64,000 nucleotides of DNA from Candidatus Limnocylindrales bacterium (GTDB lineage: Bacteria > Chloroflexota > Limnocylindria > Limnocylindrales > CSP1-4): assembly GCA_052038965.1 (NCBI GenBank), contig JBQGDI010000058.1, positions 4,248-68,247 on the forward strand. Reading direction: 5' to 3'. Position numbers and translations under genes: made by a program. Of the stretch, positions 8,496 to 63,469 are shown piece after piece. How positions within the stretch are numbered: the stretch's first letter is position 1; each line of letters starts with the position of its first letter. Below the pieces are notes generated by a model. That model saw only the letters and a list, made by a program, of their open reading frames with translations, had not been told where the DNA came from and searched no databases.

Positions 8496-8643
8496 GGTCG
8501 GACACCTCCTGTCGCGACCAGCCTTGCACGAGCGGCCGGATCGGCCGGTTGCAGGCCGGCCGGTTCGGTTGCGGGTACCTCTCGACCCCGTAACGAGGCG
8601 GCGAGTGGGTCGATCGACGCCCCGCAGCCCGCGCCGCGATCCG

Positions 8644-9867: not shown

Positions 9868-9883
9868 GGCCGAGCGGTGGCCG

Positions 9884-12022: not shown

Positions 12023-12036
12023 TCGCCGCGCGAGAT

Positions 12037-12504
12037 TCAGCGGTCGCGACAGGCCTCGCAGCGGCCCTCGATCGACAGGTGCTCGAGCGAGACCGCGAAG
12101 CCACGCCGCCGCTCGAGGTCCTCGACGAGGGCCACGAGCTCGGATGGCGCCAGGTCCCAGCGTCCACCGCAGGCGGAGCAGACGAGGTGACCGTGCGTGG
12201 CGGATGGGCGGACGTGGAACTCGGTCCGACCGTCGGGCCCGTGGGAGTGGCTGACCAGCCCGAGCTCCTCGAGGACGTCGAGCGTCCGGTAGACCGTCGA
12301 GGGCGTCGTGGACGGATCGATCTGGCGACAGCGATCGACCAGCGTCGCGCCCGTCACGTGGCCGTCGACGCGAGCCAGGACGTCGAGGATGACGCCCCGC
12401 TGGGACGTCCAGCGCAGCCCTCGCTCGTGGAGGCGCCGACGCACCTCCGCCCACCGATCGCCGGGGATCGAGGGCAGCCGACGCGTCGCAGAGCCGGCCG
12501 TCAT
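12037..12504 (-). CDS. Fur-family metalloregulator (candidate Nur/Zur-type)
   Basis: Winged helix plus metal-site cysteines/histidines (RWTSQRGVILDVL...TVYRTLDVLEELGLV...HGHLVCSACG...GRCEAC). Start ATG 12504 overlaps the NiCoT stop as ATGA. Confidence 0.8.
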   Translation of the reverse strand: MTAGSATRRLPSIPGDRWAEVRRRLHERGLRWTSQRGVILDVLARVDGHVTGATLVDRCRQIDPSTTPSTVYRTLDVLEELGLVSHSHGPDGRTEFHVRPSATHGHLVCSACGGRWDLAPSELVALVEDLERRRGFAVSLEHLSIEGRCEACRDR

Positions 12505-13457: not shown

Positions 13458-13478
13458 GGCGGCATGATCGCCGTTATC

Positions 13479-13493
13479 GCAACAGGTTGCAAC
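13479..13493. promoter_or_regulatory. Candidate Fur-family (Nur-like) operator: GCAAC-AG-GTTGC palindrome inside TTGCAAC-type repeats, 22-36 nt upstream of the NiCoT start
   Basis: Read directly: ..atcGCAACagGTTGCAACaag.. in the 58-nt kimA2-NiCoT spacer. It resembles the tTGCaa-N5-ttGCAA Nur box of Streptomyces. Confidence 0.4.
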
Positions 13494-13515
13494 AAGGGTC
13501 CCACAATGGCTCGCG

Positions 13516-15573: not shown

Positions 15574-15605
15574 GAGGGCGCGATGTGGCCGCCGCGATCC
15601 TTTGG

Positions 15606-17648: not shown

Positions 17649-17732
17649 GGCACCAACGTGCGCCACGGACCCAAGAGGGATCGGCGCTCGACAGCAGCTC
17701 CGACCCTTAAGTTCGCCTCAGGTTTCCGACGC

Positions 17733-18455
17733 TCACCCTTCCGGAGCGCGGATGCGGTAGCCGACGCCTGGCTCGGTGACGATCAGGTCACGGAGCGCGC
17801 CCTCGTGGTCGGCCGCCGCCAGCTTGCGACGGAGCTGGCTGACGTGGACGTACACGTAGCTGTCGGCGTCCTGGTAGGCCGTGCCCCAGACCGCCCGCAA
17901 GAGGCGACCCTTCGTCACGATCCGCCCGAGCTCGCCGAGCAGGACGCGCAGGATCTCGAACTCGCGGGGCGTGAGCTCGACCGTCTGGCCGTCGACGAGG
18001 ACCTCGTGGTTAGGGCCATCGAAGACGAGCGGGCCCACACGAATGCGGCCCTGGCTGTCGGCGGCCGGACCCGGTGATCGGCGCAGGGCGACCCGGAGGC
18101 GCGCGTGCAGCTCGTCGAGGCCGAACGGCTTGGTCACGAAGTCGTCGGCACCGAGCTCGAGGGCCTCGACCTTCTCACGCTCGGCGTAGCGGCCGGACAG
18201 GATCACGATCGGCGTGCCCGCGTCGCGTCGAATCCGCCTGATGACTTCGAGCCCGTCGAGGTCGGGCAATCCCAGGTCGAGCAGCACGACGTCAGGCCGC
18301 GATGCCTCCCAGCGCTCGAGGGCCGTGCGCGCGTCGATCGCCTCGACGGTCCGGTAGCCGCGAGCCCCCAGCTCGCGCAGCAGCGCGCGCCGGGTCTCGT
18401 CGTCGTCCTCGACGACCAGCACGGACGGGCCACCCGGGGGCCGCGGGGGGATCAT
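17733..18455 (-). CDS. kdpE: KdpE-like OmpR-family response regulator
   Basis: Receiver (VLVVEDDDETRRAL...LLDLGLPDLDG...LSGRYAEREKVEALELGADDFVTKPFGLDELHARLRVALRR) aligns closely with E. coli KdpE as I recall it. 4-nt overlap with kdpD. Confidence 0.85.
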   Translation of the reverse strand: MIPPRPPGGPSVLVVEDDDETRRALLRELGARGYRTVEAIDARTALERWEASRPDVVLLDLGLPDLDGLEVIRRIRRDAGTPIVILSGRYAEREKVEALELGADDFVTKPFGLDELHARLRVALRRSPGPAADSQGRIRVGPLVFDGPNHEVLVDGQTVELTPREFEILRVLLGELGRIVTKGRLLRAVWGTAYQDADSYVYVHVSQLRRKLAAADHEGALRDLIVTEPGVGYRIRAPEG

Positions 18456-27087: not shown

Positions 27088-28504
27088 GGCCGAGGGGTTG
27101 GTGCGCGGCGCGCCCTGGCGCGCTCGCAGCTTGCTCGGCGGGAGGCTCGCCCGGCTCGAGGACGATGACCTGGCCCAGCGACCACAGCGTCGTCGCCGTC
27201 AGGACGACCATCAGGGCCGCCAGTGGCACCTGCCGCCAGCGGGCGGACGGCGCCGGTCCCGTCTCGCGGACGGCCAGGACGTGCCCGGCCCAGGCCCCGG
27301 CGACGTGGCCCCCGACGACGGCGCCGAGCATGATCGCCCACATCGCCACCGGCGGGATCCAGTCCGATCCGTACTCGAAGTGGCCGAGGCCGAACAGGTC
27401 CCAGCCCTGCATGAACGGGTCGTTGAGCACGTTGACGATCCGCTGGCCGTCGCCGAGGACGAAGGTCAGGTAGTGGGCGACGATGTACCCGACCGCGATC
27501 GGCACGAGTCCGCCGCCGACGGCCGCGAGGCCCACCAGCCGCGCGACCGCAAGCGCGATGAGCGCGAGCAGGCCGAGGAACGCGGCCAGCTCGAGCGTCG
27601 CTTCCGGGAGCGTCGGCACGCCGAAGACGTCGAACCAGATCTGCGTCTGCGACAGCCCGTCGTACAGGATCGAGGCGACGCCCACGGCGACCAGCACGAC
27701 ATGGGCGGTCGTCCAGCCTGGCTCCAGCAGCCCGCGGCCGTAGCCCCGTCGTGGCACGACCCGCTCGCCGGGGCCCTCCGGCGCGCCGAACGGCGCGAGC
27801 CGGTTGAGCGTCCCGAACCAGACCGAGAACGTCTCGCCGCGCTGCCGCCACGTGTCGCGGCCGAAGTTGGCCATCGCGAGCAGCGTCAGGACCGTGTAGC
27901 CGACGAGGACGACGCCGAGGCCGCTGCCGCGATAGGCGAGCTCCAGCCAGATGACGACCGCGAGGCCGGCGACCGCCGGCCACGCCCCGAGGCGCTCGGG
28001 ATAGGGCGACGGATCGAGCCCGCCGATTCCCAGCCGGCGACCCACCGCCGCGCCGATGTCGTACAGCGTCGCGAACGGATCGAGCCACGACCAGACCGGT
28101 CCGACGAGCGCGGACAGGATCGCCAGCCCGACCCAGCCGTAAACCCACAGGAACAGCGACGCGACGTCGGCATCCGAGGAGCCGCCGAGGATCGCCTGGA
28201 CGACGATCCAGGCCCAGGCGACGAGCCCCACGGCGCGCAGCCCGAGGACCAGCCAGCGCGGCGCCATCACGGTGCGGCGTCGGACCGGCGCCGGCGCCCG
28301 GACGTCCCGCACGATCACGAACGCGAACGACAGCGCGACCGCGAGCGCTGCGCCGCCGAGGTACGCGGCCAGCGGCAGCGGCGATTCGACGCGGCCGACC
28401 AGCCCGTGGGCGAGCACCGGCGTCGGCAGGGCCAGCGCCGCCAACCCGAGCGCGATGAAGATCGGACGTCGGGCCCTCGCGGGGACGCGGGCCCACGCGG
28501 CTAT
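27065..28504 (-). CDS. Polytopic integral membrane protein (about 10 TM), last gene of the NEW3/ABC operon; start unresolved
   Basis: Long hydrophobic ORF in the frame of 27065..29749. A signal-peptide-like N-terminus (ARARRPIFIALGLAALALPTPVLAHG) begins at the ABC-2 stop (TAG 28501) with GGAGG 7 nt upstream, but the codon there is ATA. In-frame alternatives are TTG 28444, GTG 28417 and ATG 28267. Confidence 0.45.
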   Translation of the reverse strand: MAAWARVPARARRPIFIALGLAALALPTPVLAHGLVGRVESPLPLAAYLGGAALAVALSFAFVIVRDVRAPAPVRRRTVMAPRWLVLGLRAVGLVAWAWIVVQAILGGSSDADVASLFLWVYGWVGLAILSALVGPVWSWLDPFATLYDIGAAVGRRLGIGGLDPSPYPERLGAWPAVAGLAVVIWLELAYRGSGLGVVLVGYTVLTLLAMANFGRDTWRQRGETFSVWFGTLNRLAPFGAPEGPGERVVPRRGYGRGLLEPGWTTAHVVLVAVGVASILYDGLSQTQIWFDVFGVPTLPEATLELAAFLGLLALIALAVARLVGLAAVGGGLVPIAVGYIVAHYLTFVLGDGQRIVNVLNDPFMQGWDLFGLGHFEYGSDWIPPVAMWAIMLGAVVGGHVAGAWAGHVLAVRETGPAPSARWRQVPLAALMVVLTATTLWSLGQVIVLEPGEPPAEQAASAPGRAAHQPLGPRPVGSS

Positions 28505-29499
28505 GCCCGGACCTCCTGGCGCATGAAGCGCGCGTAGGCGAGCGCGAAGCAGCCCACCGTCAGCGCGACGAGGGTCACCAGGTGCGGCATCACCAGGAAC
28601 AGGCTCTGGTCGAACGACAGCAGCGACGGGATCTGGTCGGCGAGCGACGGGTTGTAGAGGTCCTGGGCGTTGACCGTCGTGACGGACGGGTTGAGGAGGG
28701 CGATCGAGGCCTCGCCGTAGATCTGGCTGGGCAGCAGGCGCAGCAGGAACTGCTGGGTCCCGGCCGCGTCGACGACGTTGGAGCCACCCGTCAGGACACT
28801 TCCGAGGAGACGGACCAGGAAGGGCCCGAACAGCGGGACGGCCACGAACAGCCAGGCACCGAACGCGACGAGGGCCGACGTCGCGGCTCGCCGGATGACG
28901 ACCGACAGCAGCGTCCCGAAGGCCAGCCACAAGGCGACGTAGAGGACCGTCACGAGGTACCAGCCCATCAGCCGCAGGATCTCCTCGGGCTCGGGCGTGA
29001 TCCCGAGACGGAGCATCCCGAAGCCAGCGATGACGAGCATCACCGCCATCAGGACCGCGGCGATGACCGCGAGGCCGGCCGCGAACTTGCCGTTGATCAC
29101 GTCGTCGCGGTGGATCGGCTGCGACAACAGGCGCGGCAGCGTGCCCTCGTGGCGTTCGCCGTTGACGGCATCGAAGGCGAAGCCGACGCCGAGCAGCGGC
29201 GCGGCGATCGCGACGAACGTCTGGACGGTGACGAAGGCGATGCCCTCCGGCCCGAGGACGAACAGCGCCAGGAACACCCCTGGCTCGCCGCTCGCCGACG
29301 AGGCCAGGGCCCGAATCCGCTCCGCGGCGAAGTAGAGCGGGATGAGCGCGGCCACGCCGAGCACGACGAGCAGGACGTAGAACCGGATGCTGAGGATGTG
29401 ATCCGCGAACTCCTTCGCCGCGACGATCGTCCAGCCGGCGGGCTGGCGGGTCGGGATCGCTGCGGTGCGGCGGGGCGCCGCCTCGGTGGCCGTGCTCAT
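28501..29499 (-). CDS. ABC-2-family transporter permease
   Basis: 332 aa, 6-7 TM, ABC-2 type. ATGA overlap with the ATPase gene. Confidence 0.8.
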   Translation of the reverse strand: MSTATEAAPRRTAAIPTRQPAGWTIVAAKEFADHILSIRFYVLLVVLGVAALIPLYFAAERIRALASSASGEPGVFLALFVLGPEGIAFVTVQTFVAIAAPLLGVGFAFDAVNGERHEGTLPRLLSQPIHRDDVINGKFAAGLAVIAAVLMAVMLVIAGFGMLRLGITPEPEEILRLMGWYLVTVLYVALWLAFGTLLSVVIRRAATSALVAFGAWLFVAVPLFGPFLVRLLGSVLTGGSNVVDAAGTQQFLLRLLPSQIYGEASIALLNPSVTTVNAQDLYNPSLADQIPSLLSFDQSLFLVMPHLVTLVALTVGCFALAYARFMRQEVRA

Positions 29500-30803
29500 G
29501 CCTCGTCCCGCCGATCGGGCCGGGCCGGCCGACGGCCGATGGGCCGCGAGGAGCCGGGTCGGCCGCCAACCGGCGGCCTCGGGCCGGGGCGCCGGACGCC
29601 GTCACCGGGACGCCCCGGGGTCCTGCCGCTCGCCGTGGCGGCGCCGCCCCGGGGCCCCCCGGGTCCCGCGGCCTTCGGGGGCCGGACGGCCGCCCGGGCG
29701 TCGGCGGCGCTGAGGCCCTGCTCCGCGAGCGCCCGGCGGTAGATGTCATCGAGCGAGGCCGAGACCTCGCGGATGGAGCTCAAGCGGAGCGACTCCGCGG
29801 CCGAGATCGCCAGGACGGACTCGCGGACTCCTCCCGCCCTCGACGCCGGCCGCACGACGAGCGTCCACTGGTCGCTGGACAGGCGGCCGCGGTGCACCTC
29901 GACCACCCCATCGATCTGGCCGAGCAGCTCGGTGGCCCGGACAGCGGTCGCCTCGTCCATGCCCTCGAAGCCGACCTCGACGTGGGCCGAGTCCTCGCCG
30001 AAGCGCGCTGCGAGCTCTGTCACCGTGCCAACCCCGATGAGCCGGCCGGCGGCGAAGATTCCGACCCGGTCGCAGACCGACTGGACCTGGTTGAGCAGGT
30101 GGCTCGAGAGCATCACCGCCAGGCCGCGCTCTCGGACGAGCGCCCGGAGGAGGTCGAGGATCTCGACCACGCCGATCGGGTCGATCGCGGTCGTCGGCTC
30201 ATCGAGGATCAGGACCGCCGGGTCCTTCACCAGGGCGTCGGCGATGCCGAGACGCTGCAGCATGCCCCGGGAATACGTCTCGACCTTCGTGTCGGCCCGG
30301 GCCGTCATGCCCACCTGCTCGAGGACGTCGTCGATCCGGCGCTCGGCGCCGCGGCCCGTGAGCCCGTTCAGGCGTGCCGTGTACCGGATGTTCTCCCGGC
30401 CGGTCATGCCGCCGTAGAAGCCGACGTTGTCGGGCAGGTAGCCGACTCGGCGCTTGACCTCGAGTGGCTGGCGGGTGGGATCGTAGCCGACGACGCGCGC
30501 CGCCCCGCGGCTCGGCTCGGTCAGGCCGAGGAGCATGAGGATCGTGGTCGTCTTGCCGGCGCCGTTCTGGCCCAGCAGGCCGAAGATCTCACCGGCGTGG
30601 ATCTCGAGCTCGAGCGCGTCAACGGCCACGAGGTCGTCGTAGCGCTTCGTGAGCCGCCGGGTGACGATCGGCGAGTCCGGCCACGGGACGGCCGGACGGT
30701 CAGGTCGGCGGCCCTTCCGCCGGGCCACGTCCGCGACGGGCCGCGCGTCCGCCGCGACGGGCGCCCCCGGGGCTCCCTCGGGCTGCGGGGTCACGGCGCC
30801 CAT
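29496..30803 (-). CDS. ABC transporter ATP-binding protein with a 110-aa Pro/Gly/Arg-rich C-terminal tail
   Basis: Walker A GQNGAGKTT, signature YSRGMLQRL, Walker B ILILDEPT. The start ATG 30803 overlaps the upstream stop (TGATG). Confidence 0.85.
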   Translation of the reverse strand: MGAVTPQPEGAPGAPVAADARPVADVARRKGRRPDRPAVPWPDSPIVTRRLTKRYDDLVAVDALELEIHAGEIFGLLGQNGAGKTTTILMLLGLTEPSRGAARVVGYDPTRQPLEVKRRVGYLPDNVGFYGGMTGRENIRYTARLNGLTGRGAERRIDDVLEQVGMTARADTKVETYSRGMLQRLGIADALVKDPAVLILDEPTTAIDPIGVVEILDLLRALVRERGLAVMLSSHLLNQVQSVCDRVGIFAAGRLIGVGTVTELAARFGEDSAHVEVGFEGMDEATAVRATELLGQIDGVVEVHRGRLSSDQWTLVVRPASRAGGVRESVLAISAAESLRLSSIREVSASLDDIYRRALAEQGLSAADARAAVRPPKAAGPGGPRGGAATASGRTPGRPGDGVRRPGPRPPVGGRPGSSRPIGRRPARPDRRDEA

Positions 30804-31960
30804 CAGCGCCGGCCGTAACGCTGGAAGACCCACCACAGGCCGCCGAACGCGGCGAGGATGAGGACGATCCCGATGACGGCGCCGATGATCGAGGTCTGGA
30901 CCGTGAAGCGGATCTCCTCCGTGTCACGGGCCTGGTCACCCGTCGCCCGAATCGTCATCACGTAGTCGCCGGCGATGGCGTCGCCCGAGGGGGTGATCAA
31001 GGCCGTGACGGTCACGGGCTGGTCGGGCGCCACGGACGCGACGGTCTCCTGGTCGCCCCAGTCGACGGTCCAGCCGCTCGGTAGGGTCGCGGCCATCTTG
31101 ACGTTCGTGATCGGCGCGGTCCCGGTGTTGGTGAGCAGGACCTGCTGCTCGTAGCCTGCGCCGGCGTTGCCACTGCCGGTGAGGACGCCGGTCGGCGTCG
31201 AGACGCTCAACGTGTAGGAGCCGGTGATCTCGACCGACAGGTCCTGGGTCAGCTGGTGGGTGCCGACGTTGGCGATGACCTGGAGCGGGTACTCGCCGGG
31301 GTCGATCGTCGCCGGGGCATTGACGGTCACGGAGATGCCGGCTGTCCCGCCAGCCTTGGCGACGGCGCTCGCGGCGTTGGTCTGGCCGGTCGGACGGGCC
31401 TCCACGGACCAGCCCTCGGGGCCCTGGCCGGTGGCGGTGTAGGTGAGATCCTCCTCCGTGTCGTTCCGGATGTTCAGCGTGAACGTGAACGTCTGGTCGG
31501 CAGCGCCACGGAGGCCGGGCACGTCGGTGCTGATCGTCACCTCGCCGGCCACGTTCTCCTGGACGGTGATGTCCAGCGGAAGCGTCCGGGTCGTGCCTTC
31601 GGATTCGGCGGTGACGGTGATCCGGTGGGTGCCGGTGGCAGCGGCCGGCACGTCGACGTCGAGCCGGACAGTCGTCGGCTCCTCCCCGTCCGGGTAGACC
31701 GCGTTGACGACGAAGCCGCCGCCGCGAAGTGCCGCCGTCCAACCGGTCGGCACGCCCGAGACCGACAGGTCGACCCGTGCAGCGGGCGAGGTCTCGACGT
31801 CCATGCTGAAGCTGACCCGCGTTCCCGGACTCGCCACGACGGCGGGATAGGGGGTCGTGAGGCTCAGCCTGTCGACGGCGAAGGCCGCCGGTGCCAGGCT
31901 CGTCGCCAAGAGCGCCGCAGCCCCGAGCGAGATCAAGCCCCGAATCCAGCGCGCAGACAA
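30803..31960 (-). CDS. Secreted/membrane-anchored NEW3-domain (COG1470-like) protein
   Basis: TTG start with GAGGAGGAG RBS. Signal peptide, three or four repeated beta-sandwich modules (VDVETSP..., FTLNIRNDTEED..., LLTNTGTAPITNV...) and a C-terminal TM anchor. Confidence 0.75.
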   Translation of the reverse strand: MSARWIRGLISLGAAALLATSLAPAAFAVDRLSLTTPYPAVVASPGTRVSFSMDVETSPAARVDLSVSGVPTGWTAALRGGGFVVNAVYPDGEEPTTVRLDVDVPAAATGTHRITVTAESEGTTRTLPLDITVQENVAGEVTISTDVPGLRGAADQTFTFTLNIRNDTEEDLTYTATGQGPEGWSVEARPTGQTNAASAVAKAGGTAGISVTVNAPATIDPGEYPLQVIANVGTHQLTQDLSVEITGSYTLSVSTPTGVLTGSGNAGAGYEQQVLLTNTGTAPITNVKMAATLPSGWTVDWGDQETVASVAPDQPVTVTALITPSGDAIAGDYVMTIRATGDQARDTEEIRFTVQTSIIGAVIGIVLILAAFGGLWWVFQRYGRR

Positions 31961-36521: not shown

Positions 36522-37405
36522 CCCCGGAGGATCGGCCGAGCCATGCAGGTCGGGCCGCCCGAACCGTTGATGCCGATCTCGGTCGCCGGATAGGTGTGGA
36601 TCTCGATCCCGTGGGCCGCCAGGTTTCGGGTCAGGACCGGGTTGCCCTCGGCGATCACGACCACGCCGGGTCGCACGACGAGGACGTTGCCGCCGAGGGT
36701 CGTGAACTCCTCGTCGGCGACCTCGATGAAGCGGTAGTCGAGATCCATCAGCAGCTGCCACAGCCCGACCGGCAGCAGCGGCAGGTACACGACCGCGAGG
36801 TCGTCGGCGATCGGGTGGATGACCGACATCAGGTGGACGAGCTTCTCGTGGCCCCGCCAGTAGGGCACGTCGAAGACCCGGACGTCGCCACCGACCAGGC
36901 CGGCGAGCTGCCGAGCGCCGGGATCGTTCGTTCGCAGCGTCCGGCCGATCACGAACAGGTCCGGTCGGAGCCAGAACGTGTCGCCCCCCTCGGCGGTCCC
37001 CGGCGCCTCGATCCGCCCGATGGTCGGGATGCCGTGCGACTGGGTCCAGCGCTCGATGGCCGCGGGCTCCACCTGCCGGTTCGGCTTGCCAGGGCGCAGC
37101 GGGATCGCGCCGCGATCGGTGATCAGCAGCGGATCGAAGGCGTACACGAGGTCGGGACTGTCGACCTCCTCATCGATCCGGTGCACGCGGACGCCAAGGC
37201 CGGCGAGGATGTTCGCGAACGCGTCGTGCTCGCGCTGGGCGACGTCGAGGTCGCAGGGATGGAAGAAGCCGTGGGCCGGGTTCTCGAAGGCCCGGCCAAA
37301 CGCCGGCCCGGGTCGCTTCAGCAGGACGTCCCGGAGCGGCGCCGTCATGCTCTGGCCGCCGAACGCCATGGCGGTCGATGCCGTCCGAGATTCGAGCGTG
37401 GTCAT
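36518..37405 (-). CDS. Amidinotransferase-superfamily enzyme, dimethylarginine dimethylaminohydrolase (DDAH)-like
   Basis: C-terminal catalytic GGPTCMARPIL motif. Start ATG 37405; alternative ATGs at 37372 and 37351. Confidence 0.75.
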   Translation of the reverse strand: MTTLESRTASTAMAFGGQSMTAPLRDVLLKRPGPAFGRAFENPAHGFFHPCDLDVAQREHDAFANILAGLGVRVHRIDEEVDSPDLVYAFDPLLITDRGAIPLRPGKPNRQVEPAAIERWTQSHGIPTIGRIEAPGTAEGGDTFWLRPDLFVIGRTLRTNDPGARQLAGLVGGDVRVFDVPYWRGHEKLVHLMSVIHPIADDLAVVYLPLLPVGLWQLLMDLDYRFIEVADEEFTTLGGNVLVVRPGVVVIAEGNPVLTRNLAAHGIEIHTYPATEIGINGSGGPTCMARPILRG

Positions 37406-37506
37406 CGCCGAAGGATATCGACTCGGCTCACCTCGCCACGCGCCGCGCCACAGCGCGCCCAGCAGCGCGTCACATACGCCGGGAGGACGCTGGAGGGTCC
37501 GTTTCG

Positions 37507-40500
37507 ATGGCAGGCCGGTGGCGGCGTCTCGGGGATCGTGTCCCGTCGGGTTCGATCGGCAAGGCGGTGGTCTCCGTCTCGGTCGTCGCCCTCGTCGGCA
37601 TTTTCCTCGTCCAGGTCTCCGGCGGCCCGATCGCGAGCCCGTCCGCCTCGCCCGGCGCGAGCCAATCGGCCGCGAGGCCGACCGCGTCGCCGCGGCCTCC
37701 CGCCTCACCCCTGCCTCTCCCGACCCCCGGCGCGAGTCCCGAGCCCTGGGAGGACTTCGAGCTGCCCGCTGCCCTGCTCGTCGCCGAGCTCAGCCCGACG
37801 GCCAGCGACACGGCCGGCGTCAAGGTCGGCTCGGGGTTCAGGCTCCGCAGCCTCGACGGCACGCCCGCGGTTGCGCTGGCCCGTGGCCTCCAGAGCCAGC
37901 CCGCGGTTGCACTCAGCATCCAGCCCGGCGAGTCGGACGACGTGGCGATCTTGACGCCGGCCGTCGCCCTCGATCCCGGCGCGACCTACCGCTTCCGCCT
38001 GTTCTCCCCGGACGGCGCGCTCGGCGGCTCGTGGGCGTTCCAGACTCAGCGGCCGGTGCACGTCACCGGGACGCTGCCCGGGGACATGGAGACCGCCGTT
38101 CCCCTCACGACGGGGATCGAGGTCACCTTCGACCAGGACGGAAGCACGGACATCGCCGCCCACTTCCGGATCGAGCCGGCGGTCGACGGCCGCTTCGAGC
38201 AGCACGGTCGGACCTGGGCCTTCGTGCCCGAAACTCGGCTCCGCGCCGCGACCGCGTATCGCGTGACGATCACCCGCGGCGTTGCCCTCGAAGGCTCCGA
38301 CCAGGTCCTCGAGGACGACGTGTCGTTCCGGTTCGAGACCGCCCGGGCGGGCACCCCCGTCCGCGAGTTCGCCCTGCAGTTCGAGAGCCCGCTGATGGCC
38401 CTCCGGCCGAGCGATCGCGTGGCGCTGCCGATCGCCCATGACGACGACGACGAGGAATGGGCGGTGTCGTGGCCGACGAGCCTGCCGGTCGAGGTCTACC
38501 TGCTGCCCAACCGCGCCGCGACGATCGATGCGGCGACCCGGCTCACCGGCCCCGACAGCTGGCTGCGCGCCTCCGGGGCGGGCCTCGTCCCGACCTCCGA
38601 CCTGCAGCGGGTTGCCCGAGTCGACGCACCGATCGCCCGTGGCCGGGACGATTCGCCGTCGCTCTTGATGGTTCCCGTCGACCTCGATCCGGGCGCCTAC
38701 GTCGTCGTCGTGCCGCGCGAGCGTGGACCCGTCCAGGCCCTCCTCCAGATCAGGAACCTGGGGGCCTACGGGCTGTCGACCGACACCCGGTCCGTCGTCT
38801 GGGTTCACGACCTCCAGAGCCTCGATCCCGTCGGCGGCGCCGTCGTCGCAACGGCCGACGGCCGCGAGCTGGCGCGAACGGCTGCCGATGGATTGGCGGA
38901 CTTCGCGACCCCGCCCGCCCTCGTGCCGCAGGCACCGGACGAGGAATGGACGCCGTGGCCGACGGTCATCTCCGTCACGACGCCCAGCGGCCGCTGGCTC
39001 GTCGTCGCCCTCGGCATCCGGACGAGCTACTGGACCTCGTACCTGAACAACCGGCCCTCGAGCGCCGACGAGCCAATGAACCGGTGGTGGCTCCTGCTCG
39101 AAACCGATCGCGACCAGTACCGCCAGACCGACACGATCCGGGCCTGGGGGTTCGTCCGGGAGCGCTCCGACCGGAGCGTGCCCGTCGACGTCGAGCTCCG
39201 ACTGTACCCGGAGGACGGCCTGGGCGACGCACCGCTGGCCAGGGTTTCCGTCCAGCCAACCGCGCAGGGCGTCTTCCTCGCAGAGCTCCCGATCGCGTTC
39301 CTGCCGATGGGCGACTACGCGCTTGGCCTGTTCGTCGGTGATCGAGAAGCGTCCACGACCTGGCTCAGCGTGAGCCAGATCCGGAAGCCGAGCTACCGCC
39401 TCGACATCGCCACCGACCGGCTCGTCTACCTCGACGAGGATCGGATCTCGGTGACGATCCACGCGACGTTCTTCGACGGCACTCCCGTCCCGAATGCCGA
39501 GCTGCGCGTCCGCACCGGCAGCTGGAGCGACGAAGACCGCGATCAGACCGTCGCGGTCACGACGGACGCGCTCGGGGTGGCCCGCGCCGCCGTCACCGCT
39601 CGGTACGGGAACAAGCGTCGAGAGGGCTGGGATTACCAGTTCGTGTACGTGCGGCCGGTGAACCCCGAAGAGGGGTCGATCCAGGGCGAGGACCAGGTCA
39701 TGGTCTTTCCCTCCAAGGCCTGGCTTGCCGCCGACGCCGAGCTGGACGGGACGAACCTCGAGGTCGCTGGCCGGTTGACCCGTGTCGACTTCGACGCGGT
39801 CCAGGCCGCGCTCGCCGATGGTTCATGGGACTGGGACGCCGACCCGTCTGGTCGCCCGATCGACGCTGCATCGGTTCGGGCCACCGTGATCCAGCACGTC
39901 ACGACCCGGCGCCAGGTCGGGACCACCTACGACTACATCGAGAAGGTCGTCGTCCCGATCTACCACTACGACACGGTGGAACGGACCGTCGGCACCTACC
40001 AGGCCACGACACGATCGGACGGGTCATTCCACCTCGCCGTTGACGTCCCGAAGGCGACGGACGACTACACGGTCGTCCTCCGCTCGGCCGACGGCGCCGG
40101 ACGGCCCATCCAGCTGGAGACTTGGGCTCAGCCGAAGATCCGGCCCGCGGCCCGTTTGCAGCCGTCCTACCTCGGCACGTATCCCACCGGCTGCGGGGGC
40201 GTGCCCGACCACGTCGTCGGGCTCGACCAGACCGCGGTGCTCACGCTGCATGACGGCGACGGGCGCGTCGCGGACGACGGCCGGTTCCTGTTCCTCGTCG
40301 GTGCCCGAGGCCTCGTCGATGCCCAGGTCAGCGCCGGCTCGACGTTCCAGCGAACCCTCCGCAGCTCGGACCTGCCTGGCTTCACGGTCCGGGCGGTCCA
40401 GGTGACGGAGGTCGGCTACACGGTTGCGGACGTCGGCGTCCGCGTCGACCAGGACGACATGCGGCTGACGGTCCGCCTCGCCCCCGACCACGAGGCCTAC

Positions 40501-42597
40501 CGCCCGGGTGGCACCGTCACGCTCGGCGTCACGACCCTCGGGCCGGGCGGCGATCCCGTGGCGGCGGAGGTCGTCCTGCAGGCCGTCGACGAGAAGCTGT
40601 ACGCGATCGGGGCGGCCCACGTGCCCGACGTCCTGCCATGGCTGATGCGGGAAGTCGGTGATGGATTCCTGCAGGCGACGGCGTCGCACTCGGCGACGCG
40701 CACCTACGAAGGTGGCTGCGGCGCGACCGGCGGGGACGGCGAGCGCGAGGACTTCGAGGACGTGGTGACCTTCCAGCTGGTCCGGACGGGGGCTGACGGG
40801 CGGGGCACCGCTACGTTCAAGCTGTCCGACGACCTCACGAGCTGGCGTCTCACCGCGACGGCCATCAGCGGCGACCTCCGGGCCGGCAGCGGCACGACCC
40901 TCGTCCCGGTCACGCTGCCGTTCTTCGTGGAGGCCGTGCTGGCGCCCGACTACCTCGTGGGAGAGCAGCCGGTCCTGCGCCTGCGGGGGTTCGGCACGAG
41001 CCTCGAGGCGGATGATCCGGTGCGCTACACGGTCGCGGCCCCGAGCCTCGGCCTCACCGACACGACCGTGCAGGGCCGGGCCTTCACCGCGGCCCGCATC
41101 CCGTTGCCCGCCGTCACCGCGGGCGACCACCGGATCACGATCACCGGCCACGGACCTGACGGGCTGACCGACACCCTCGTCCGGGTCGTCCGGGTCGTCC
41201 CGAGCCGGCTCGCCGGCATCAACACCCGCTACGACCTGTTGGACGCCGGCTACGAGCCCCCGGGTGGCGAGGGCTTGACGCACTACCTGGTGGTCGATGC
41301 AGGGCGCGGCTCACTGGTCCCGCTCCTCGAGGAGCTGGCATGGACCCGCAGCGCTCGTTTCGATCGGGCTCTCGCCGCCGAGGCAGCGCGTCAGCTCCTG
41401 ATCGACGAGTTCGGGTTCGATCCGACGACGCTGCCGGAAACGGGGTTCGACTCGTCCGCCTATGACCACGGCCTCGTTGCGCTGCTGCCGTACGGGTCGG
41501 GCGATCTCGAGCTCACCGCGCTCGCGGCGCTCGTCGCCCCGGACGACGTCAGCCCGGACGGGCTCCGCGCGCGGTTGGGCCGGGACGACGATGGCGAGGA
41601 TGGCGGGCCACTGACGCGCGAAGCCCGAATCATCGCCCTGGCGGGCCTCGCCGCGCTCGGCGACGACGTCCTGGCCGAGCTCCGGACCATGGCCTCGGAG
41701 CCGCTGACCGTTCGCGAGCGCCTGTGGCTCGCGCTGGGGATCGCGGCCTCCGGCGACGAGAACGGCGCCCGGGCGATCGAGCGGGCCCTGCTCGATACCC
41801 ACGGGCAGCGGCTCGGGCCGTGGGTCCGGCTGGAGGTCGGCCATTCGATCGAGGACACCCTCGAAGCCGCCGGCCTGCTGCTGGTCCTGAGCGCCCGTCT
41901 CGGCGAGCCGTTCGGGCGGGATGTCGCGCGGTACCTCGCCGATCACCCATCGCGCGAGCGATCGTTCGCGCTGCAGGAGCTGGCCTACGCACAATCGGTC
42001 GCGGAGCGGTCGCCGCGGACGGCCACCCGCTTCGCGTGGACCGTGGCGGGCGCGCGCCACGAGGTGGATCTCGCCCCGGGCCGCTCGTTCACCGTGGTGC
42101 TCTCGGCCGCGCAGCGCCAGGGGTTCCGCCTGGAGCCGCTCGCCGGCGAGCTCGCCGTCGTGAGCTCCTGGGAGGGAGATCTCGACCCGATGCCAGGCGG
42201 GACACTTGCCCGGATTGCACGAAGCGTAACGCCCGCCGGCGACGTGGCGGAGGATGCCCTCGTCCGCGTGTCGATCACGGTGGAGTTCGGGCGGCTGGCG
42301 ACCGCCGGCTGCTGGCAGATCACGGATCTCGTGCCGTCGGGCTTGGTCCCGCTGTCCTACGGCGAGGCCGAGTACGAGGACGAGGAAGATCCATCAGGAT
42401 CCCGCGAGTGGCCGTATGCCATCGAGGGTCAGCGGGTCTCGTGGTGCATGTCGGTGGACAATCCCTCGCGTCGGGTCGACTACCTCGCCCGCGTCGTGTC
42501 GCCCGGCACGTTCACCTGGGAGCCGGCGATCATCCAGGCGGTCGACGCGCCGGAGATCGGGGCGGCGACGGAGGCGACGACGTTCAGGATCCGCTAG
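37507..42597 (+). CDS. Alpha-2-macroglobulin-family large extracellular protein (1696 aa) without a recognisable CxEQ thioester
   Basis: ATG 37507 with GGAGGG RBS. N-terminal TM/signal anchor, many MG/Ig-like repeats, bait-region-like VLQAVDEKLYAIG and a C-terminal A2M receptor-like region. No C-x-E-Q seen in the translation. Confidence 0.8.
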   Translation: MAGRWRRLGDRVPSGSIGKAVVSVSVVALVGIFLVQVSGGPIASPSASPGASQSAARPTASPRPPASPLPLPTPGASPEPWEDFELPAALLVAELSPTASDTAGVKVGSGFRLRSLDGTPAVALARGLQSQPAVALSIQPGESDDVAILTPAVALDPGATYRFRLFSPDGALGGSWAFQTQRPVHVTGTLPGDMETAVPLTTGIEVTFDQDGSTDIAAHFRIEPAVDGRFEQHGRTWAFVPETRLRAATAYRVTITRGVALEGSDQVLEDDVSFRFETARAGTPVREFALQFESPLMALRPSDRVALPIAHDDDDEEWAVSWPTSLPVEVYLLPNRAATIDAATRLTGPDSWLRASGAGLVPTSDLQRVARVDAPIARGRDDSPSLLMVPVDLDPGAYVVVVPRERGPVQALLQIRNLGAYGLSTDTRSVVWVHDLQSLDPVGGAVVATADGRELARTAADGLADFATPPALVPQAPDEEWTPWPTVISVTTPSGRWLVVALGIRTSYWTSYLNNRPSSADEPMNRWWLLLETDRDQYRQTDTIRAWGFVRERSDRSVPVDVELRLYPEDGLGDAPLARVSVQPTAQGVFLAELPIAFLPMGDYALGLFVGDREASTTWLSVSQIRKPSYRLDIATDRLVYLDEDRISVTIHATFFDGTPVPNAELRVRTGSWSDEDRDQTVAVTTDALGVARAAVTARYGNKRREGWDYQFVYVRPVNPEEGSIQGEDQVMVFPSKAWLAADAELDGTNLEVAGRLTRVDFDAVQAALADGSWDWDADPSGRPIDAASVRATVIQHVTTRRQVGTTYDYIEKVVVPIYHYDTVERTVGTYQATTRSDGSFHLAVDVPKATDDYTVVLRSADGAGRPIQLETWAQPKIRPAARLQPSYLGTYPTGCGGVPDHVVGLDQTAVLTLHDGDGRVADDGRFLFLVGARGLVDAQVSAGSTFQRTLRSSDLPGFTVRAVQVTEVGYTVADVGVRVDQDDMRLTVRLAPDHEAYRPGGTVTLGVTTLGPGGDPVAAEVVLQAVDEKLYAIGAAHVPDVLPWLMREVGDGFLQATASHSATRTYEGGCGATGGDGEREDFEDVVTFQLVRTGADGRGTATFKLSDDLTSWRLTATAISGDLRAGSGTTLVPVTLPFFVEAVLAPDYLVGEQPVLRLRGFGTSLEADDPVRYTVAAPSLGLTDTTVQGRAFTAARIPLPAVTAGDHRITITGHGPDGLTDTLVRVVRVVPSRLAGINTRYDLLDAGYEPPGGEGLTHYLVVDAGRGSLVPLLEELAWTRSARFDRALAAEAARQLLIDEFGFDPTTLPETGFDSSAYDHGLVALLPYGSGDLELTALAALVAPDDVSPDGLRARLGRDDDGEDGGPLTREARIIALAGLAALGDDVLAELRTMASEPLTVRERLWLALGIAASGDENGARAIERALLDTHGQRLGPWVRLEVGHSIEDTLEAAGLLLVLSARLGEPFGRDVARYLADHPSRERSFALQELAYAQSVAERSPRTATRFAWTVAGARHEVDLAPGRSFTVVLSAAQRQGFRLEPLAGELAVVSSWEGDLDPMPGGTLARIARSVTPAGDVAEDALVRVSITVEFGRLATAGCWQITDLVPSGLVPLSYGEAEYEDEEDPSGSREWPYAIEGQRVSWCMSVDNPSRRVDYLARVVSPGTFTWEPAIIQAVDAPEIGAATEATTFRIR

Positions 42598-43765
42598 TGA
42601 TGGCGGGCGCGGCGAACCGGGCCGGGGAGAACGCGGGGTCGATCTCGGCCGCGCGCCCGAGCACGAGGTCTGCGACCTGGCGGGCCGACGCCGGGCCGCA
42701 TGAGATGCCCCACGGGCCGTGCCCGGAGGCGATGTAGAGGCCGTCGGTCCACGGAACGGTGCCGACCACGGGCCGACCGTCGATCGACGCGGGGCGGGCG
42801 CAGGCCCGGACCTCGCGGATCGGGGCGTCGACGATTCCCGGCACGAAGGTCATGGCGTTTTCCAGCAGGGGCTCGATCCAGCTGGGCGGGTCCGGCTCGC
42901 GCGACAGGAACGTCGAGCCGACCGCGGATGCACCGCCCGCCGTGATCAGGCTGAAGTTCGGAGCGGGATCGCCGGCGTCTGCCCGCGCCTCCTGACGCAC
43001 CGCAGCCTCGCCGGTACCGAGGGCCTCGTCCATCTCGGCCTCCTCGAGGACGTGGTGCGGCGGGTCCGCCAGGAGCGTCTCGACGACCACGCCCCAGCGG
43101 TGCTCGATGGGTCGCCACGCGCCACCGGGGTCGACGAGCTCCGGCGACCACGGGCCGGCCGCCACGACGACCGCGCCCGCAGGTTCGACCCGACCCGCGA
43201 CGGCCACGCCCGTGCAGCGATGGCCGTCGATCACCGGCCGAGCCTCGTGGCCGAGCCGGATCGAGACGCCGCGGCGCTCGGCGAGCGTCGCGAAGGCGTA
43301 CGTCGGCGCGGAGGGCACCACCGGATAGCCGATCGCCACGCGGCAGGCCACGACGTCCGGCGCGAGGGACGGCTCGAGCGCCCGAAGCGCGGGGCCCTCG
43401 ACGACCTCGGGCGAGATGGCCGGGAACGCCGCGCCGAGGTGCGCCGCCAGGACCCGAACAACCCCTGGGTCATGGGATACCAGCAGTAGCCCCGCCGGCG
43501 GAGCGTCGAAGTCCGCGATCCGCCAGCCGACCTCGGCCTGGGCGCGGCGAAAGTGCTCGCGGCTCTCCTCGAAGAGCGGCACGATGACCGGGTCGAAGGC
43601 CGGTTGGATGACGCCCGAGTTGCGACCGGAGGCTCCGGCCGCCAGGGCCTCGCGTTCGTAGAGGGTCACCCGCGCACCCGCCTCGGCGAGGAACGTCGCG
43701 GTTGCGGTGCCGACGATGCCGCCGCCGATGACGGCCACGTCGGGTGTCGTCACGCCGGCAGTCAC
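42584..43765 (-). CDS. FAD-dependent oxidoreductase (DAO family; glycine/D-amino-acid oxidase-like)
   Basis: N-terminal dinucleotide motif VAVIGGGIVG. 12 nt downstream of the class-V aminotransferase gene. Confidence 0.8.
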   Translation of the reverse strand: MTAGVTTPDVAVIGGGIVGTATATFLAEAGARVTLYEREALAAGASGRNSGVIQPAFDPVIVPLFEESREHFRRAQAEVGWRIADFDAPPAGLLLVSHDPGVVRVLAAHLGAAFPAISPEVVEGPALRALEPSLAPDVVACRVAIGYPVVPSAPTYAFATLAERRGVSIRLGHEARPVIDGHRCTGVAVAGRVEPAGAVVVAAGPWSPELVDPGGAWRPIEHRWGVVVETLLADPPHHVLEEAEMDEALGTGEAAVRQEARADAGDPAPNFSLITAGGASAVGSTFLSREPDPPSWIEPLLENAMTFVPGIVDAPIREVRACARPASIDGRPVVGTVPWTDGLYIASGHGPWGISCGPASARQVADLVLGRAAEIDPAFSPARFAAPAITSGS

Positions 43766-54785: not shown

Positions 54786-54812
54786 GGATCCGCCCAGGGC
54801 TCAGCCGCGGGC

Positions 54813-55637
54813 TCAGGCGGAGCGGGCCGGCTCCGCGGCGATGAGCCCGAGCAGCGCGGCGTGATGCCGCCGCGGGGCAGCCAGGACGCCGATCGACTTC
54901 GGGCCGCGGGTGACGTCGAACCACGGCCCTCCGCCCAGGTCCGTGACCTCCGCCCCGCCGCGGGCGGCGATGAGCCCCGCGGCCGCGACGTCCCAAGTCG
55001 AGAGGCCGCCCTGCTGGACGAAGGCGTCGAACCGACCGTTGGCGACGTAGGCCAGGGCGAGCGCCGCCGAGCCCATCGAGCGCGGCACGCGGATGGCCTT
55101 GCGGATGGCCCGTACGCGGCTGCTCAGGTTGCGGCCGCTGAGGGCCATCGAGACGACGAAGTCCGAGAGCGCGTCCTTGTCGGAGGCGGCCACGGCCGCC
55201 CCGTCGAGGGTCGCCGGGCCGTCGGCCGTCGCGGCGTAGGTCTCGTTCCGAGCCGGGTCGTGGACCACCCCCACGACCGGTTGGCCGTCGGCGACCAGCG
55301 CGATCGAGACGCAGAAGAACGGGATGCCGTTGGCGTAATTGATCGTGCCGTCGAGCGGGTCGACGATCCAGACCCGCCCGACCCCGGCCGTCGGCGCGAC
55401 CCCGCCCAGGGCGTGGTGCTCGCCGCTCTCCTCGCCGAGGAGGCCGTCGCCCGGGTGCTCCCGCCGGATCGCGTCGAGGATGAGCGCCTCGGACAGGTGG
55501 TCGACCTCGGTCACGACGTCCTTGGCCGACTTGTGGTCGATCCGCTCGACGCGGCCGTGGTGGTCCATCAGCAGCTCGCCGGCGCGGCGAGCGAGGTCGA
55601 GCGAGAACGCGAGGTCGCCGGCGTGACGGCTCGTCAC
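54813..55637 (-). CDS. suhB: Inositol monophosphatase-family protein (SuhB/ImpA-like)
   Basis: WIVDPLDGTINYANGIPFFCVSIAL and GSAALALAYVANGRFDAF motifs. GTG start in a GTGA overlap with the upstream gene. Confidence 0.85.
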   Translation of the reverse strand: MTSRHAGDLAFSLDLARRAGELLMDHHGRVERIDHKSAKDVVTEVDHLSEALILDAIRREHPGDGLLGEESGEHHALGGVAPTAGVGRVWIVDPLDGTINYANGIPFFCVSIALVADGQPVVGVVHDPARNETYAATADGPATLDGAAVAASDKDALSDFVVSMALSGRNLSSRVRAIRKAIRVPRSMGSAALALAYVANGRFDAFVQQGGLSTWDVAAAGLIAARGGAEVTDLGGGPWFDVTRGPKSIGVLAAPRRHHAALLGLIAAEPARSA

Positions 55638-56125
55638 GGCGACGTGCAATCGGCGGTCAGCGCGATGGCGGTCTCGCCGAACCTCGTCACGGTCGTGACG
55701 AATCGCACCTCCGAGTTGGCCGGCACGACCGGCGTCTGGACGACCTGGCGCGGGCCCCCGGCGCGGCGCGAGGCTTCGAGCACGACGCACGTCGTGGCCG
55801 CCGCCTTGTCGCCGTCGTTGGCGACGAGGAGCGTGATCGACAAGCCGCCAGCGGTTGGGGCCGCACCCAGCACGGCCCCGACGAATGGCCCGGTGCCGGC
55901 GAGGACGAACCGAGCCACGACGGCGAGGACGACGACGAAGGCGATGATGCCGAGAGCCGCGATCCCGTGGACCTGCGTGGCCGAGGGCTGGGCCAGCTCG
56001 AGCGGGTTGCAGTCGTCGCACAGCCCGTTCCCGGCCGCGACGCCGGGACGGCCGCAGCGGATGCAGCGATGGGTGTACTCGGGCTCGTCGCGGCCGGCGG
56101 CGAGGGCGGTCGGGGACGGCGGCAT
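55634..56125 (-). CDS. Zinc-ribbon / single-TM membrane protein (163 aa)
   Basis: ATG 56125. N-terminal CIRCGRP...CDDC zinc ribbon, one TM (GIAALGIIAFVVVLAVVARFVL), then an extracytoplasmic domain. Translationally coupled to suhB. Confidence 0.6.
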   Translation of the reverse strand: MPPSPTALAAGRDEPEYTHRCIRCGRPGVAAGNGLCDDCNPLELAQPSATQVHGIAALGIIAFVVVLAVVARFVLAGTGPFVGAVLGAAPTAGGLSITLLVANDGDKAAATTCVVLEASRRAGGPRQVVQTPVVPANSEVRFVTTVTRFGETAIALTADCTSP

Positions 56126-56154
56126 GGACCTGCGGATGGTGCCACGATCCGCGC

Positions 56155-56997
56155 CTACCAGCGGGCGGCGGCCGCCTCCAGGGCCTCGACGTCGCGCGGT
56201 GTCCGGGCGGTGACGACGACCTCGTCCACGCCCCGCTCCCGCAGCTCGGCCCACGCCTCCGCCGGTCGCTCGACCCACGGGCTGCCGGGCAGCGCGTCGA
56301 CGCCGGTCTTGCCGCCGCCGAACCCGACGACGATCCGGACGTCATCTCGCCGCCGGCCGTTCGCCGCCAGCGCCTCGAAGTACCGATCGCGGAGCTCGTC
56401 GAAGTACCGCCGCTCCGGCGCCCAGCCGTCTCCGATCCGGGCCGCGACGTCGACCCCGCGGCGCGACTCGCCGCCGATCAGGATTCGCGGCGCCGGTTCC
56501 GGCACCGGAAACGCGTACGCCTCGCGGAGCGGGTAGAACGGGCTCTCGCGGCTGATCGGGCCGCCCGTCCAGAGGGCGCGCAGGACCGCCACGGCCTCCT
56601 CCAGCCTCGCCACCCGCTCGTCGACCGGCGGATTCGGGATGCCGTAGGCGGCCAGCTCCCGGTCGCCGCCGCCGATCCCGAGACCCACCGTCAAGCGGCC
56701 ACCGGAGGCTGCCTGGAGCGTCGCCGCCATGCGGGCCAGCAACGCCGGGTGGCGCGTGACGACGTTCGTGATGAACGTGCCCAGGCCGATCCGGCCGGTC
56801 CGCCCGGCGGCCGCGGCGAGAATCGTCCACTGCTCGAGAACGGGGACGGTCGGATCGCCCTTGCCGATGAAGTGGTCCCAGGCCCATACGGCCCGGTAGC
56901 CGGCGGCCTCGAGCCGCCGGGCGCCATCGAGCCACCAGCCCGCGGTCGCGCCGACCGTCCCAAGGGCGACGCCGATCGGCAGTCCTCGCTCGGCCAC
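56155..56997 (-). CDS. Luciferase-like monooxygenase (LLM) family oxidoreductase, probably F420-dependent
   Basis: GTG 56997, 14 nt after the MTAP stop. TIM-barrel LLM motifs (WAWDHF, LTVGLGIGG). Confidence 0.7.
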   Translation of the reverse strand: MAERGLPIGVALGTVGATAGWWLDGARRLEAAGYRAVWAWDHFIGKGDPTVPVLEQWTILAAAAGRTGRIGLGTFITNVVTRHPALLARMAATLQAASGGRLTVGLGIGGGDRELAAYGIPNPPVDERVARLEEAVAVLRALWTGGPISRESPFYPLREAYAFPVPEPAPRILIGGESRRGVDVAARIGDGWAPERRYFDELRDRYFEALAANGRRRDDVRIVVGFGGGKTGVDALPGSPWVERPAEAWAELRERGVDEVVVTARTPRDVEALEAAAARW

Positions 56998-63151: not shown

Positions 63152-63469
63152 ACGGGCCTCCAAGACGTTGGACACGATGCCGTGGCCGTTCGCCCGCGGG
63201 CGGGGACGGGCCCCGGCAAACCGATGGAGACTCAGGCGGTCTCCGCTCCTCCAGGTCGAGACCGCGCCGTTCGAGGTGACCTATTGGAAGGGGATGGGAC
63301 GCGACGGCTGGGCAGCTCGCAGGTGAGCAGCCGTGGCGCGAAGAGCGAACGATCCCCTTGCCGCGCTGGCTCCCGGCGAGTCCTCCGACTCGCACCCAGC
63401 GCCCTGTCGGCGCAGGATACGCCCGTGCGGGAATCTCGTGTCAGTCGGGTACAGAACATGGTGGTGCGG

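Follow-up and report, generated by a model that had tools for sequence, protein, structure and literature searches.

An alpha-2-macroglobulin-like protein without a thioester motif and its relatives, found mainly in Chloroflexota

The 64,000-nucleotide stretch of contig JBQGDI010000058.1 analyzed here (Candidatus Limnocylindrales bacterium; hereafter the window) contains, at positions 37507–42597 of the forward strand, a gene for a 1696-residue protein that is a divergent member of the alpha-2-macroglobulin (A2M)/TEP superfamily and lacks the C-x-E-Q thioester motif. Bacterial A2Ms have to date been described from Gram-negative species only, in two classes: type I, with a thioester and the partner PBP1c, and type II, without a thioester and encoded in a mag/yfa operon (PMC5764988). 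In a 2026 review, metazoans and Gram-negative bacteria are the only groups listed as having A2M (PMC12939704). The protein fits neither class. It is not type I, as it lacks the thioester, a pbpC neighbor, and a lipobox, and it is not type II, as it lacks the operon partners and is not most closely related to YfaS. It belongs to a large group outside both classes that has no thioester, no conserved partner gene, and what appears to be a different membrane tether.

Assignment to the superfamily is based on profile searches and predicted folds. In Pfam, the protein matches Big_5 (41.6 bits against a cut-off of 23.6, E = 2.2e-10; residues 182–278, or 225–321 in the numbering of a 1739-residue version of the open frame discussed below), A2M_BRD (PF07703; 32.9 bits, cut-off 22.7; 949–1076 in the 1739-residue numbering), and A2M (PF00207; 24.7 bits, cut-off 21; residues 1089–1145, or 1132–1188 in the longer version). 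The bMG10 profile falls just under its cut-off (25.6 against 26.2 bits, E = 1.5e-5; 1628–1726 in the 1739-residue numbering), and weak bMG3/MG3 matches occur in the array of macroglobulin (MG) domains. Aligned by hhalign, the family profile and thioester-bearing A2Ms are collinear over 1550–1611 columns with a probability of 100 and E-values of 2e-49 to 1e-83. An NCBIfam scan of the protein gave no match, and a phmmer search against PDB sequences returned only spurious diguanylate-cyclase matches (E about 0.02); because these models are silent and the search of PDB chain sequences finds nothing real, we describe the protein as a divergent member of the superfamily.

Two AlphaFold2 (AF2) models were built on a 77-sequence family alignment. 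The model of residues 500–1696 (window 39004–42594) has a predicted local distance difference test (pLDDT) score of 88.8 and a predicted template modeling (pTM) score of 0.82, and the model of residues 75–620, an all-β chain of β-sandwiches, has values of 91.8 and 0.80, respectively. In Foldseek searches, the top PDB matches of the C-terminal model are native Escherichia coli ECAM (5a42) and Salmonella A2M (4u48), both with E = 2.7e-46, followed by C4, C3, A2ML1, CD109, C5, and TEP1 (E = 1e-38 to 1e-42). For the N-terminal model, Salmonella A2M (4u48) and the MG0-NIE-MG1 fragment of ECAM (4zjg) appear among generic Ig arrays and S-layer proteins. The models contain the features that define the superfamily (MEROPS I39 fold), namely an MG β-sandwich array (all-β outside the helical domain), a bait-region domain followed by an A2M domain with R-x-x-F and D-x-x-T-x-W motifs, and a CUB domain split by an inserted α-helical domain resembling the thioester domain (TED), followed by a C-terminal MG/receptor-binding domain. 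An earlier reading of the window, made from the DNA letters and open reading frames without database searches (hereafter the sequence-only reading), had described the gene product as a 1696-residue A2M-like protein, and both the profile scan (Big_5, A2M_BRD, and A2M) and the predicted fold (5a42 and 4u48) bear this out. That reading had also named a Big/invasin-type family as an alternative source of the MG/Ig-like repeats; the repeats are not of the Big/invasin type only.

The motif C-x-E-Q was found in none of the six frames of positions 37000–43000, in agreement with the sequence-only reading, and it is equally absent from the relatives: none of 77 aligned members and none of 145 further cluster representatives, drawn from an exhaustive search with the helical domain alone, carry it (222 in total). 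The whole protein has only four cysteines, the helical domain has none, and the protein gives no match to PF07678. The helical domain nevertheless occupies the TED position in the collinear hhalign alignment with type I A2Ms, and a global profile alignment sets the bacterial A2M motif Y-P-Y-G-C-T-E-Q opposite L-A-W-T-R-S-A-R, in the loop before the second helix of the domain. When the helical-domain subprofile was aligned with type I TEDs, the result was collinear and non-significant (probability 2.7%), with a register that is uncertain by about two residues; judged from these alignments, the thioester motif is gone in either register.

The former thioester site is placed, by column statistics and this low-confidence register, at S-A-R-F-D (residues 1282–1286; 41350–41364), where the family motif [GS]-A-R-[FL]-[DE] replaces G-C-x-E-Q. 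Arginine at 1284, an acidic residue (Asp or Glu) at 1286, and aspartate at 1264 each occur in 77/77 sequences. The four positions D1264, R1284, D1286, and D1417 (41296–41298, 41356–41358, 41362–41364, and 41755–41757) are invariant or always acidic over the same 77 sequences. The thioester loss is ancient, fixed in the family, and no artefact.

The gene itself is a single intact frame. Its 1696 codons are followed by a stop codon at 42595–42597, and the ATG at 37507 is preceded, 9 nt upstream, by GGAGGG as a ribosome-binding site. The open frame spans 37378–42597 on the forward strand uninterrupted, and a 1739-residue version starting from the ATG at 37378 is mechanically possible but unsupported. 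The 1696-residue form is identical to the database protein P0001, and homologs begin at the same position. The G+C content of the window is 68–74%, and the codon-position G+C of the frame (0.73/0.55/0.87) is typical of genuine genes in the window; the strong bias at the third codon position (GC3, 0.87) and the unbroken open reading frame count against a frameshift or a pseudogene. Intact full-length open reading frames of about 1600–1780 codons, with many invariant residues, recur in most of the best 78 loci of the genome scan described below, which suggests that the gene is under purifying selection. Taken with the profile and structure results, these observations define 37507–42597 (forward strand) as the complete coding sequence of a thioester-less, A2M-like, putatively membrane-tethered protein.

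A word-indexed search retrieved 86 relatives, nearly all of 1640–1780 residues, with 23–61% identity, and a scan of one genome per species found a relative in 234 species genomes. Searching with the helical domain alone gave 782 clusters (at 50% identity) at E ≤ 1e-3, of which 449 pass E ≤ 1e-10. The suggestion in the sequence-only reading that the protein is an orphan thus fails at the level of the family. Taxonomy was read from the best 78 of the 234 matching loci, nearly all of which are metagenome-assembled genomes of Chloroflexota (Limnocylindria/CSP1-4, with some Dehalococcoidia, Thermomicrobiales, or Anaerolineae). Five loci (L010, L018, L035, L046, and L050) were binned as Patescibacteria, Deferrimicrobiaceae, Methylomirabilota, Verrucomicrobiia, and Actinomycetota, respectively, with identities typical of Chloroflexota; these labels probably reflect mis-binning. 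Automated annotation labels some members as "alpha-2-macroglobulin" or "Ig-like domain-containing protein." In some Chloroflexota genomes, two members of the family occur (L023/L028 and L027/L070), and one locus (L004) has a tandem pair at 8001–13025 and 13243–18330, encoding 1674 and 1695 residues.

The order of modules along the protein can be followed in the AF2 models (all coordinates on the forward strand). The MG/Ig-like β-sandwich array comprises approximately residues 93–874 (37783–40128), including Big_5 (38050–38340), as indicated by Pfam, AF2, and Foldseek. Within it, residues 789–834 (39871–40008) form a long two-stranded β-ribbon with strands of about 21 residues and high pLDDT; the ribbon is family-specific, and its tip carries the invariant pair Y808–D809 in the consensus GTxYDFIEK and aligns to a gap in P0083, a thioester-bearing outgroup. 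The bait-region domain (residues 901–1033; 40207–40605) corresponds to PF07703 and is a β domain in AF2. Beyond the bait position lies an MG domain at about residues 1086–1191 (40762–41079), recognized by PF00207, by AF2, and by the motifs R-x-D-F-x-D and D-D-L-T-S-W-R; R1080, F1083, D1085, T1111, and W1113 are invariant in the family alignment. The first part of the CUB-like domain, at about residues 1196–1264 (41092–41298), has approximate boundaries taken from AF2, and the Foldseek alignment to ECAM and Salmonella A2M (SaA2M) spans the whole model. Inserted in the CUB-like domain is the TED-like, all-helical domain at about residues 1265–1501 (41299–42009), with 12 helices at model residues 768–1002. 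The CUB-like domain then resumes at about residues 1507–1558 (42025–42180), with AF2 strands at model residues 1008–1059, where ECAM has Pfam CUB_A2MG. The C-terminal domain (residues 1568–1695; 42208–42591) is an MG10-like β-sandwich in AF2 with a borderline bMG10 match, consistent with the receptor-binding-like domain that had been proposed from the sequence.

The sequence-only reading had singled out VLQAVDEKLYAIGAAHVPDVL as a bait-region-like segment. This segment (residues 1023–1043) does lie in the bait-region domain; it forms the conserved end of that domain, with D1028 invariant and E1029, K1030, and L1031 nearly so, and is not a cleavable loop. A better candidate is the disordered loop of residues 1058–1082, TASHSATRTYEGGCGATGGDGERED (40678–40752), which contains Cys1071, has pLDDT values below 50 (model residues 559–583), and in the AF2 model falls precisely between the bait-region domain and the MG domain that follows. 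The seven-residue core of this loop (1062–1068) reaches the 95th percentile of column entropy and has a high content of Pro and Arg, with Arg or Lys present in 69% of the members; it is flanked by a conserved S-H and by a Gly-rich G-G-C-G-x-T-G-G. These properties fit a protease-recognition element on a flexible frame, and we call the loop a candidate bait by its position, predicted disorder, and variability only.

An N-terminal membrane anchor had also been claimed, and a 21-residue hydrophobic stretch was indeed found at residues 17–37, IGKAVVSVSVVALVGIFLVQV (37555–37617), after a basic stretch, with a Kyte–Doolittle maximum of 2.43. There is no lipobox Cys, residues 1–895 being devoid of cysteine. 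The stretch is followed by a low-complexity linker rich in Pro, Ser, Ala, Thr, and Gly (about residues 38–85; 37618–37761), these residues making up 67% of the 60 positions past the hydrophobic segment. An equivalent hydrophobic segment occurs in 69/77 family members, and the P/S/A/T/G-rich 60 residues after it occur in all members; several distant members carry a lipobox-like L-A-[AG]-C in place of the segment, a motif seen in 9/62 further full-length representatives. The segment is a predicted signal anchor, or possibly a signal peptide, cleaved or uncleaved; 21 hydrophobic residues would be long for a cleavable signal peptide. From these features we infer that the protein is tethered to the membrane and exposed at the surface.

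The four cysteines fall into two pairs that covary in the family. For C896, which is encoded at 40192–40194 and located in a loop just upstream of the bait-region domain, and C1071, both cysteines are present in 43 members, neither in 29, and only one in 5. For C1602 and C1647, in the C-terminal β-sandwich, both are present in 66 members, neither in 11, and one only in none. Such covariation is the pattern expected of disulfides and thus points to an extracytoplasmic protein. A predicted C896–C1071 bridge would link the bait loop with the loop just before the bait-region domain, so that cleavage products would stay joined.

The gene neighborhood is as the sequence-only reading had it. Upstream, about 160 bp separate the gene from an ADI/DDAH-like gene in divergent orientation, past which lies an M20 peptidase; downstream, a DAO-type FAD oxidoreductase gene runs toward it, and the two 3′ ends overlap by 14 bp (42584–42597). 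The order in the window is aminotransferase III – MFS – M20 – ADI-like / A2M-like / DAO – aminotransferase V – MarR – DUF72. In one lineage (L001, L002, and L007), relatives with as little as 42% identity largely keep this order, with M20, ADI-like, or DAO genes absent from individual loci. Other lineages (L004–L006) have unrelated neighbors, namely Mfd/Pth/YbeY with a tandem paralog, toxin–antitoxin genes, or an ECF sigma factor. A functional tie to the adjacent metabolic genes (aminotransferases, MFS, M20, ADI-like, DAO, MarR, and DUF72) was considered and rejected as lineage synteny, the order being replaced in L004–L006. When flanking open reading frames of 86 loci were clustered, no real neighbor family was present in more than 17 loci; the top "conserved neighbor" clusters turned out to be antisense shadow frames of the A2M gene itself and not genes.

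Neither of the partner systems known for bacterial A2Ms was detected. Neither the window nor 85 related loci (1.24 Mb) gave a tblastn match to PbpC of E. coli or to two PBP1c-like proteins, and searches of the same sequences with YfaQ, YfaT, and YfaA were also negative (YfaP was not queried). Pfam identified nothing of the PBP1c kind among the neighbors. The absence of PBP1c or YfaS-operon partners, noted from the sequence, is therefore upheld for the proteins searched. With no conserved neighbor and no PBP1c or Yfa matches, we conclude that the gene stands alone.

Comparison with known systems places the family nearest to type I in structure. The type I proteins ECAM/YfhM and SaA2M (5a42, 4u48, and 4ziq) are the best structural matches, have a similar length (1653 versus 1696 residues), and share the module order of MG array, bait-region domain, MG, CUB split by a helical domain, and MG10, as well as, if our interpretation of the N terminus is correct, a tether to the cytoplasmic membrane that leaves the body of the protein extracytoplasmic. 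The differences are considerable. ECAM has YPYGCLEQ, whereas the helical domain described here has no Cys at all; the gene for ECAM, a lipoprotein (LAGC), lies beside pbpC, whereas the present protein has a putative hydrophobic anchor and a P/S/A-rich linker and is encoded with no PBP1c gene close by. The structural alignment shows only 15–16% identity, phmmer finds no genuine match to any PDB chain, ECAM scores 64 bits to the family hidden Markov model (HMM), and the Pfam profiles bMG1, bMG2, bMG5, and bMG6 match ECAM and not our protein.

Higher scores to the family HMM (168–340 bits) are reached by Big_5-bearing, thioester-containing A2Ms of 1860–2161 residues, among which P0083, P0085, and P0086 (about 1900–2200 residues) are the closest sequences outside the family (252–340 bits; hhalign E = 1e-83 over 1611 columns). 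These proteins share the N-terminal Big_5 and the MG/BRD/A2M core. They differ in that they keep Y-P-Y-x-C-x-E-Q, with a Pfam-recognizable TED in P0083 (the one scanned), in having several Big_5 copies and 200–450 additional residues, and in lacking the extended β-ribbon tip; their alignment to the family HMM stops before the helical domain. In the two contigs that were read, P0083 and P0085 lie directly downstream of genes with Transgly, Transpeptidase, and BiPBP_C domains, which is the canonical type I context.

Type II proteins (MagD and YfaS) resemble the family in lacking C-x-E-Q while retaining a bait region, and the helical domain of YfaS is likewise missed by the Pfam TED profile. They are, however, encoded in six-gene magABCDEF or yfa operons and depend on their partners, whereas none of YfaQ, YfaT, or YfaA was detected at the present gene or in the 85 related loci. 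Type II has been described from Gram-negative bacteria, whereas the present family is found mainly in Chloroflexota. Furthermore, YfaS scores 114 bits to the family HMM, below the thioester-bearing Big_5 group (168–340 bits), and the loss of the thioester is therefore probably independent of type II. The simplest reading of these sequence comparisons is that the family descends from a Big_5-type, type-I-like ancestor and lost both the thioester and the linkage to PBP1c independently of proteobacterial type II.

The eukaryotic A2M, complement, and TEP proteins (human A2M, A2ML1, CD109, C3, C4, C5, and TEP1) share the overall fold. They differ in sequence (12–14% identity) and in elements that our protein lacks (anaphylatoxin, C345C, and LNK), and, compared with them, our protein has bacterial-type extra N-terminal domains and, apparently, the architecture of a membrane-tethered monomer. 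C5 is a member of the superfamily that has no thioester.

We propose, with about even confidence and by analogy, that the protein is a membrane-tethered, non-covalent protease trap. The protein would be exported and kept at the cytoplasmic membrane by its N-terminal hydrophobic anchor (by a lipid anchor in distant relatives), and the Pro/Ser/Ala-rich linker of about 45 residues would hold a macroglobulin body of roughly 1600 residues outside the membrane. This body, presumably stabilized by the two predicted disulfides, appears to retain every A2M module: the MG array, the bait-region domain, a flexible loop at the bait position, and the CUB-like, TED-like helical, and MG10 domains. A foreign protease that cuts the exposed loop would trigger a conformational change and would then be held sterically, without a covalent bond, as in MagD. 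A precedent exists in Pseudomonas aeruginosa, where MagD, which has no CXEQ, traps protease non-covalently after bait cleavage (PMC5764988). The predicted Cys896–Cys1071 disulfide would keep both fragments joined after cleavage, and the trap would work alone, without PBP1c or Mag/Yfa accessory proteins. Loop cleavage and protease trapping are thus what we infer for this protein from its likeness to characterized A2Ms.

Several observations weigh against this proposal. MagB is needed for the stability of MagD (PMC5764988), and no such partner is found near the present gene. Monomeric A2M-family inhibitors, such as human A2ML1, are reported to rely on the thioester for inhibition (PMC9156758); a thioester-less monomer may therefore trap poorly unless it oligomerizes. 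The candidate bait comprises about 25 disordered residues, far fewer than classical baits have; some of its positions are conserved, and other regions of the protein vary more. The TED-like domain has diverged past sequence recognition, and the invariant Arg and Asp in it may indicate a role other than that of a passive plug. Finally, the C-terminal AF2 model is nearer to protease-activated ECAM (4ziq, template modeling (TM) score 0.59; 4rtd, 0.57/0.61) than to native ECAM or SaA2M (0.33), which is at odds with a spring-loaded native state, a modeling artefact being possible. The activated-like conformation may also be read as a hint of a thioester-less protein that has no spring-loaded native state.

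The main competing explanation, which we consider unlikely though worth serious attention, is that the protein is a non-inhibitory surface scaffold or adhesin, in which the A2M fold is re-used for adhesion, envelope spacing, or S-layer-like coverage and the former thioester domain binds a ligand or the cell wall. The presence of Big_5 is consistent with this idea, as is the similarity of the N-terminal model to S-layer proteins (SbsC, EA1, Sap, and 7ptp), which is about as good as that to A2M N termini, although such generic Ig-array matches are expected from any run of MG domains. The loss of the thioester in all 222 relatives examined, the existence of at least two paralogs in some genomes, the conserved family-specific tip of the β-ribbon, and the resemblance of the AF2 model to a "spent," activated conformation also agree with a scaffold or adhesin, and the invariant D1264, R1284, [DE]1286, and D1417 in or near the former reactive pocket suggest a conserved binding site. 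On the other hand, the full trap apparatus (bait-region domain, loop with a hypervariable core, split CUB-like domain, and MG10) is kept in order, which is unexpected for a mere scaffold, and Pfam finds no adhesin-type repeats, sortase signal, or S-layer-homology anchoring domains.

Since the architecture is common to C3, C4, and TEP1 as well as to A2M, one may also think of a complement-like sensor of proteolysis or an opsonin-like binder, in which cleavage of the loop exposes the TED-like domain for non-covalent binding of a target or for signaling envelope damage, with no inhibition of the protease. Conserved polar residues at the former thioester site would suit such a function, and an ECF sigma factor gene lies directly upstream in one distant locus. 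This neighbor, however, occurs in that single locus only, no signaling partner or other neighbor is conserved across lineages, and there is no anaphylatoxin or C345C-type extra domain, all of which makes a sensor or opsonin improbable. As for a hidden type I A2M, with its thioester masked by a frameshift or sequencing error, or a decaying pseudogene, both are refuted by the six-frame search, by the unbroken reading frame with its GC3 of 0.87, by the absence of CxEQ from 77 + 145 relatives, and by the invariant Arg at the site.

Other features of the window were recorded in passing. An 836-residue immune-inhibitor-A-like M6 metallopeptidase (Peptidase_M6, MAM, and VEG), of a secreted-protease type, is encoded on the reverse strand at 60770–63280, about 18 kb from the A2M-like gene. 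At 28501–31960 (reverse strand), genes for an ABC-2 permease, an ABC ATPase, and a NPCBM_assoc/NEW3-repeat protein are grouped; synteny of the ATPase and the NEW3 protein is seen in L002 and L007 and, for the NEW3 protein, in L001 as well, whereas a permease was identified only in L002. Two unusually long AA_permease_2 proteins, of 910 and 703 codons as open frames, are encoded at 9884–12616 and 15606–17717 (both on the reverse strand), and coding-looking open reading frames without a Pfam match occur at 8644–10053 and 12501–13682 (reverse strand), near the AA_permease_2 pair, and at 54786–56213 (forward strand).

In its most far-reaching form, the trap proposal would make the family a third, independently derived class of bacterial A2M, a stand-alone, thioester-less surface trap in Chloroflexota in which invariant Arg and Asp residues form the center of a remodeled thioester pocket and the β-ribbon provides a new hold on the protease or another ligand; we put this forward tentatively, as somewhat doubtful. 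Chloroflexota are generally regarded as single-membrane bacteria. If such a third class exists, A2M-type envelope defense would not be confined to the Gram-negative periplasm. The advance is incremental in either case and does not concern a new type of system. If proteases are trapped, the family would offer a simple, self-contained system for studying how thioester-less, apparently monomeric macroglobulins work, and it would show how bacteria without a periplasm shield their envelope from foreign proteases. If they are not, the family would show the A2M fold re-used for another function at the cell surface.

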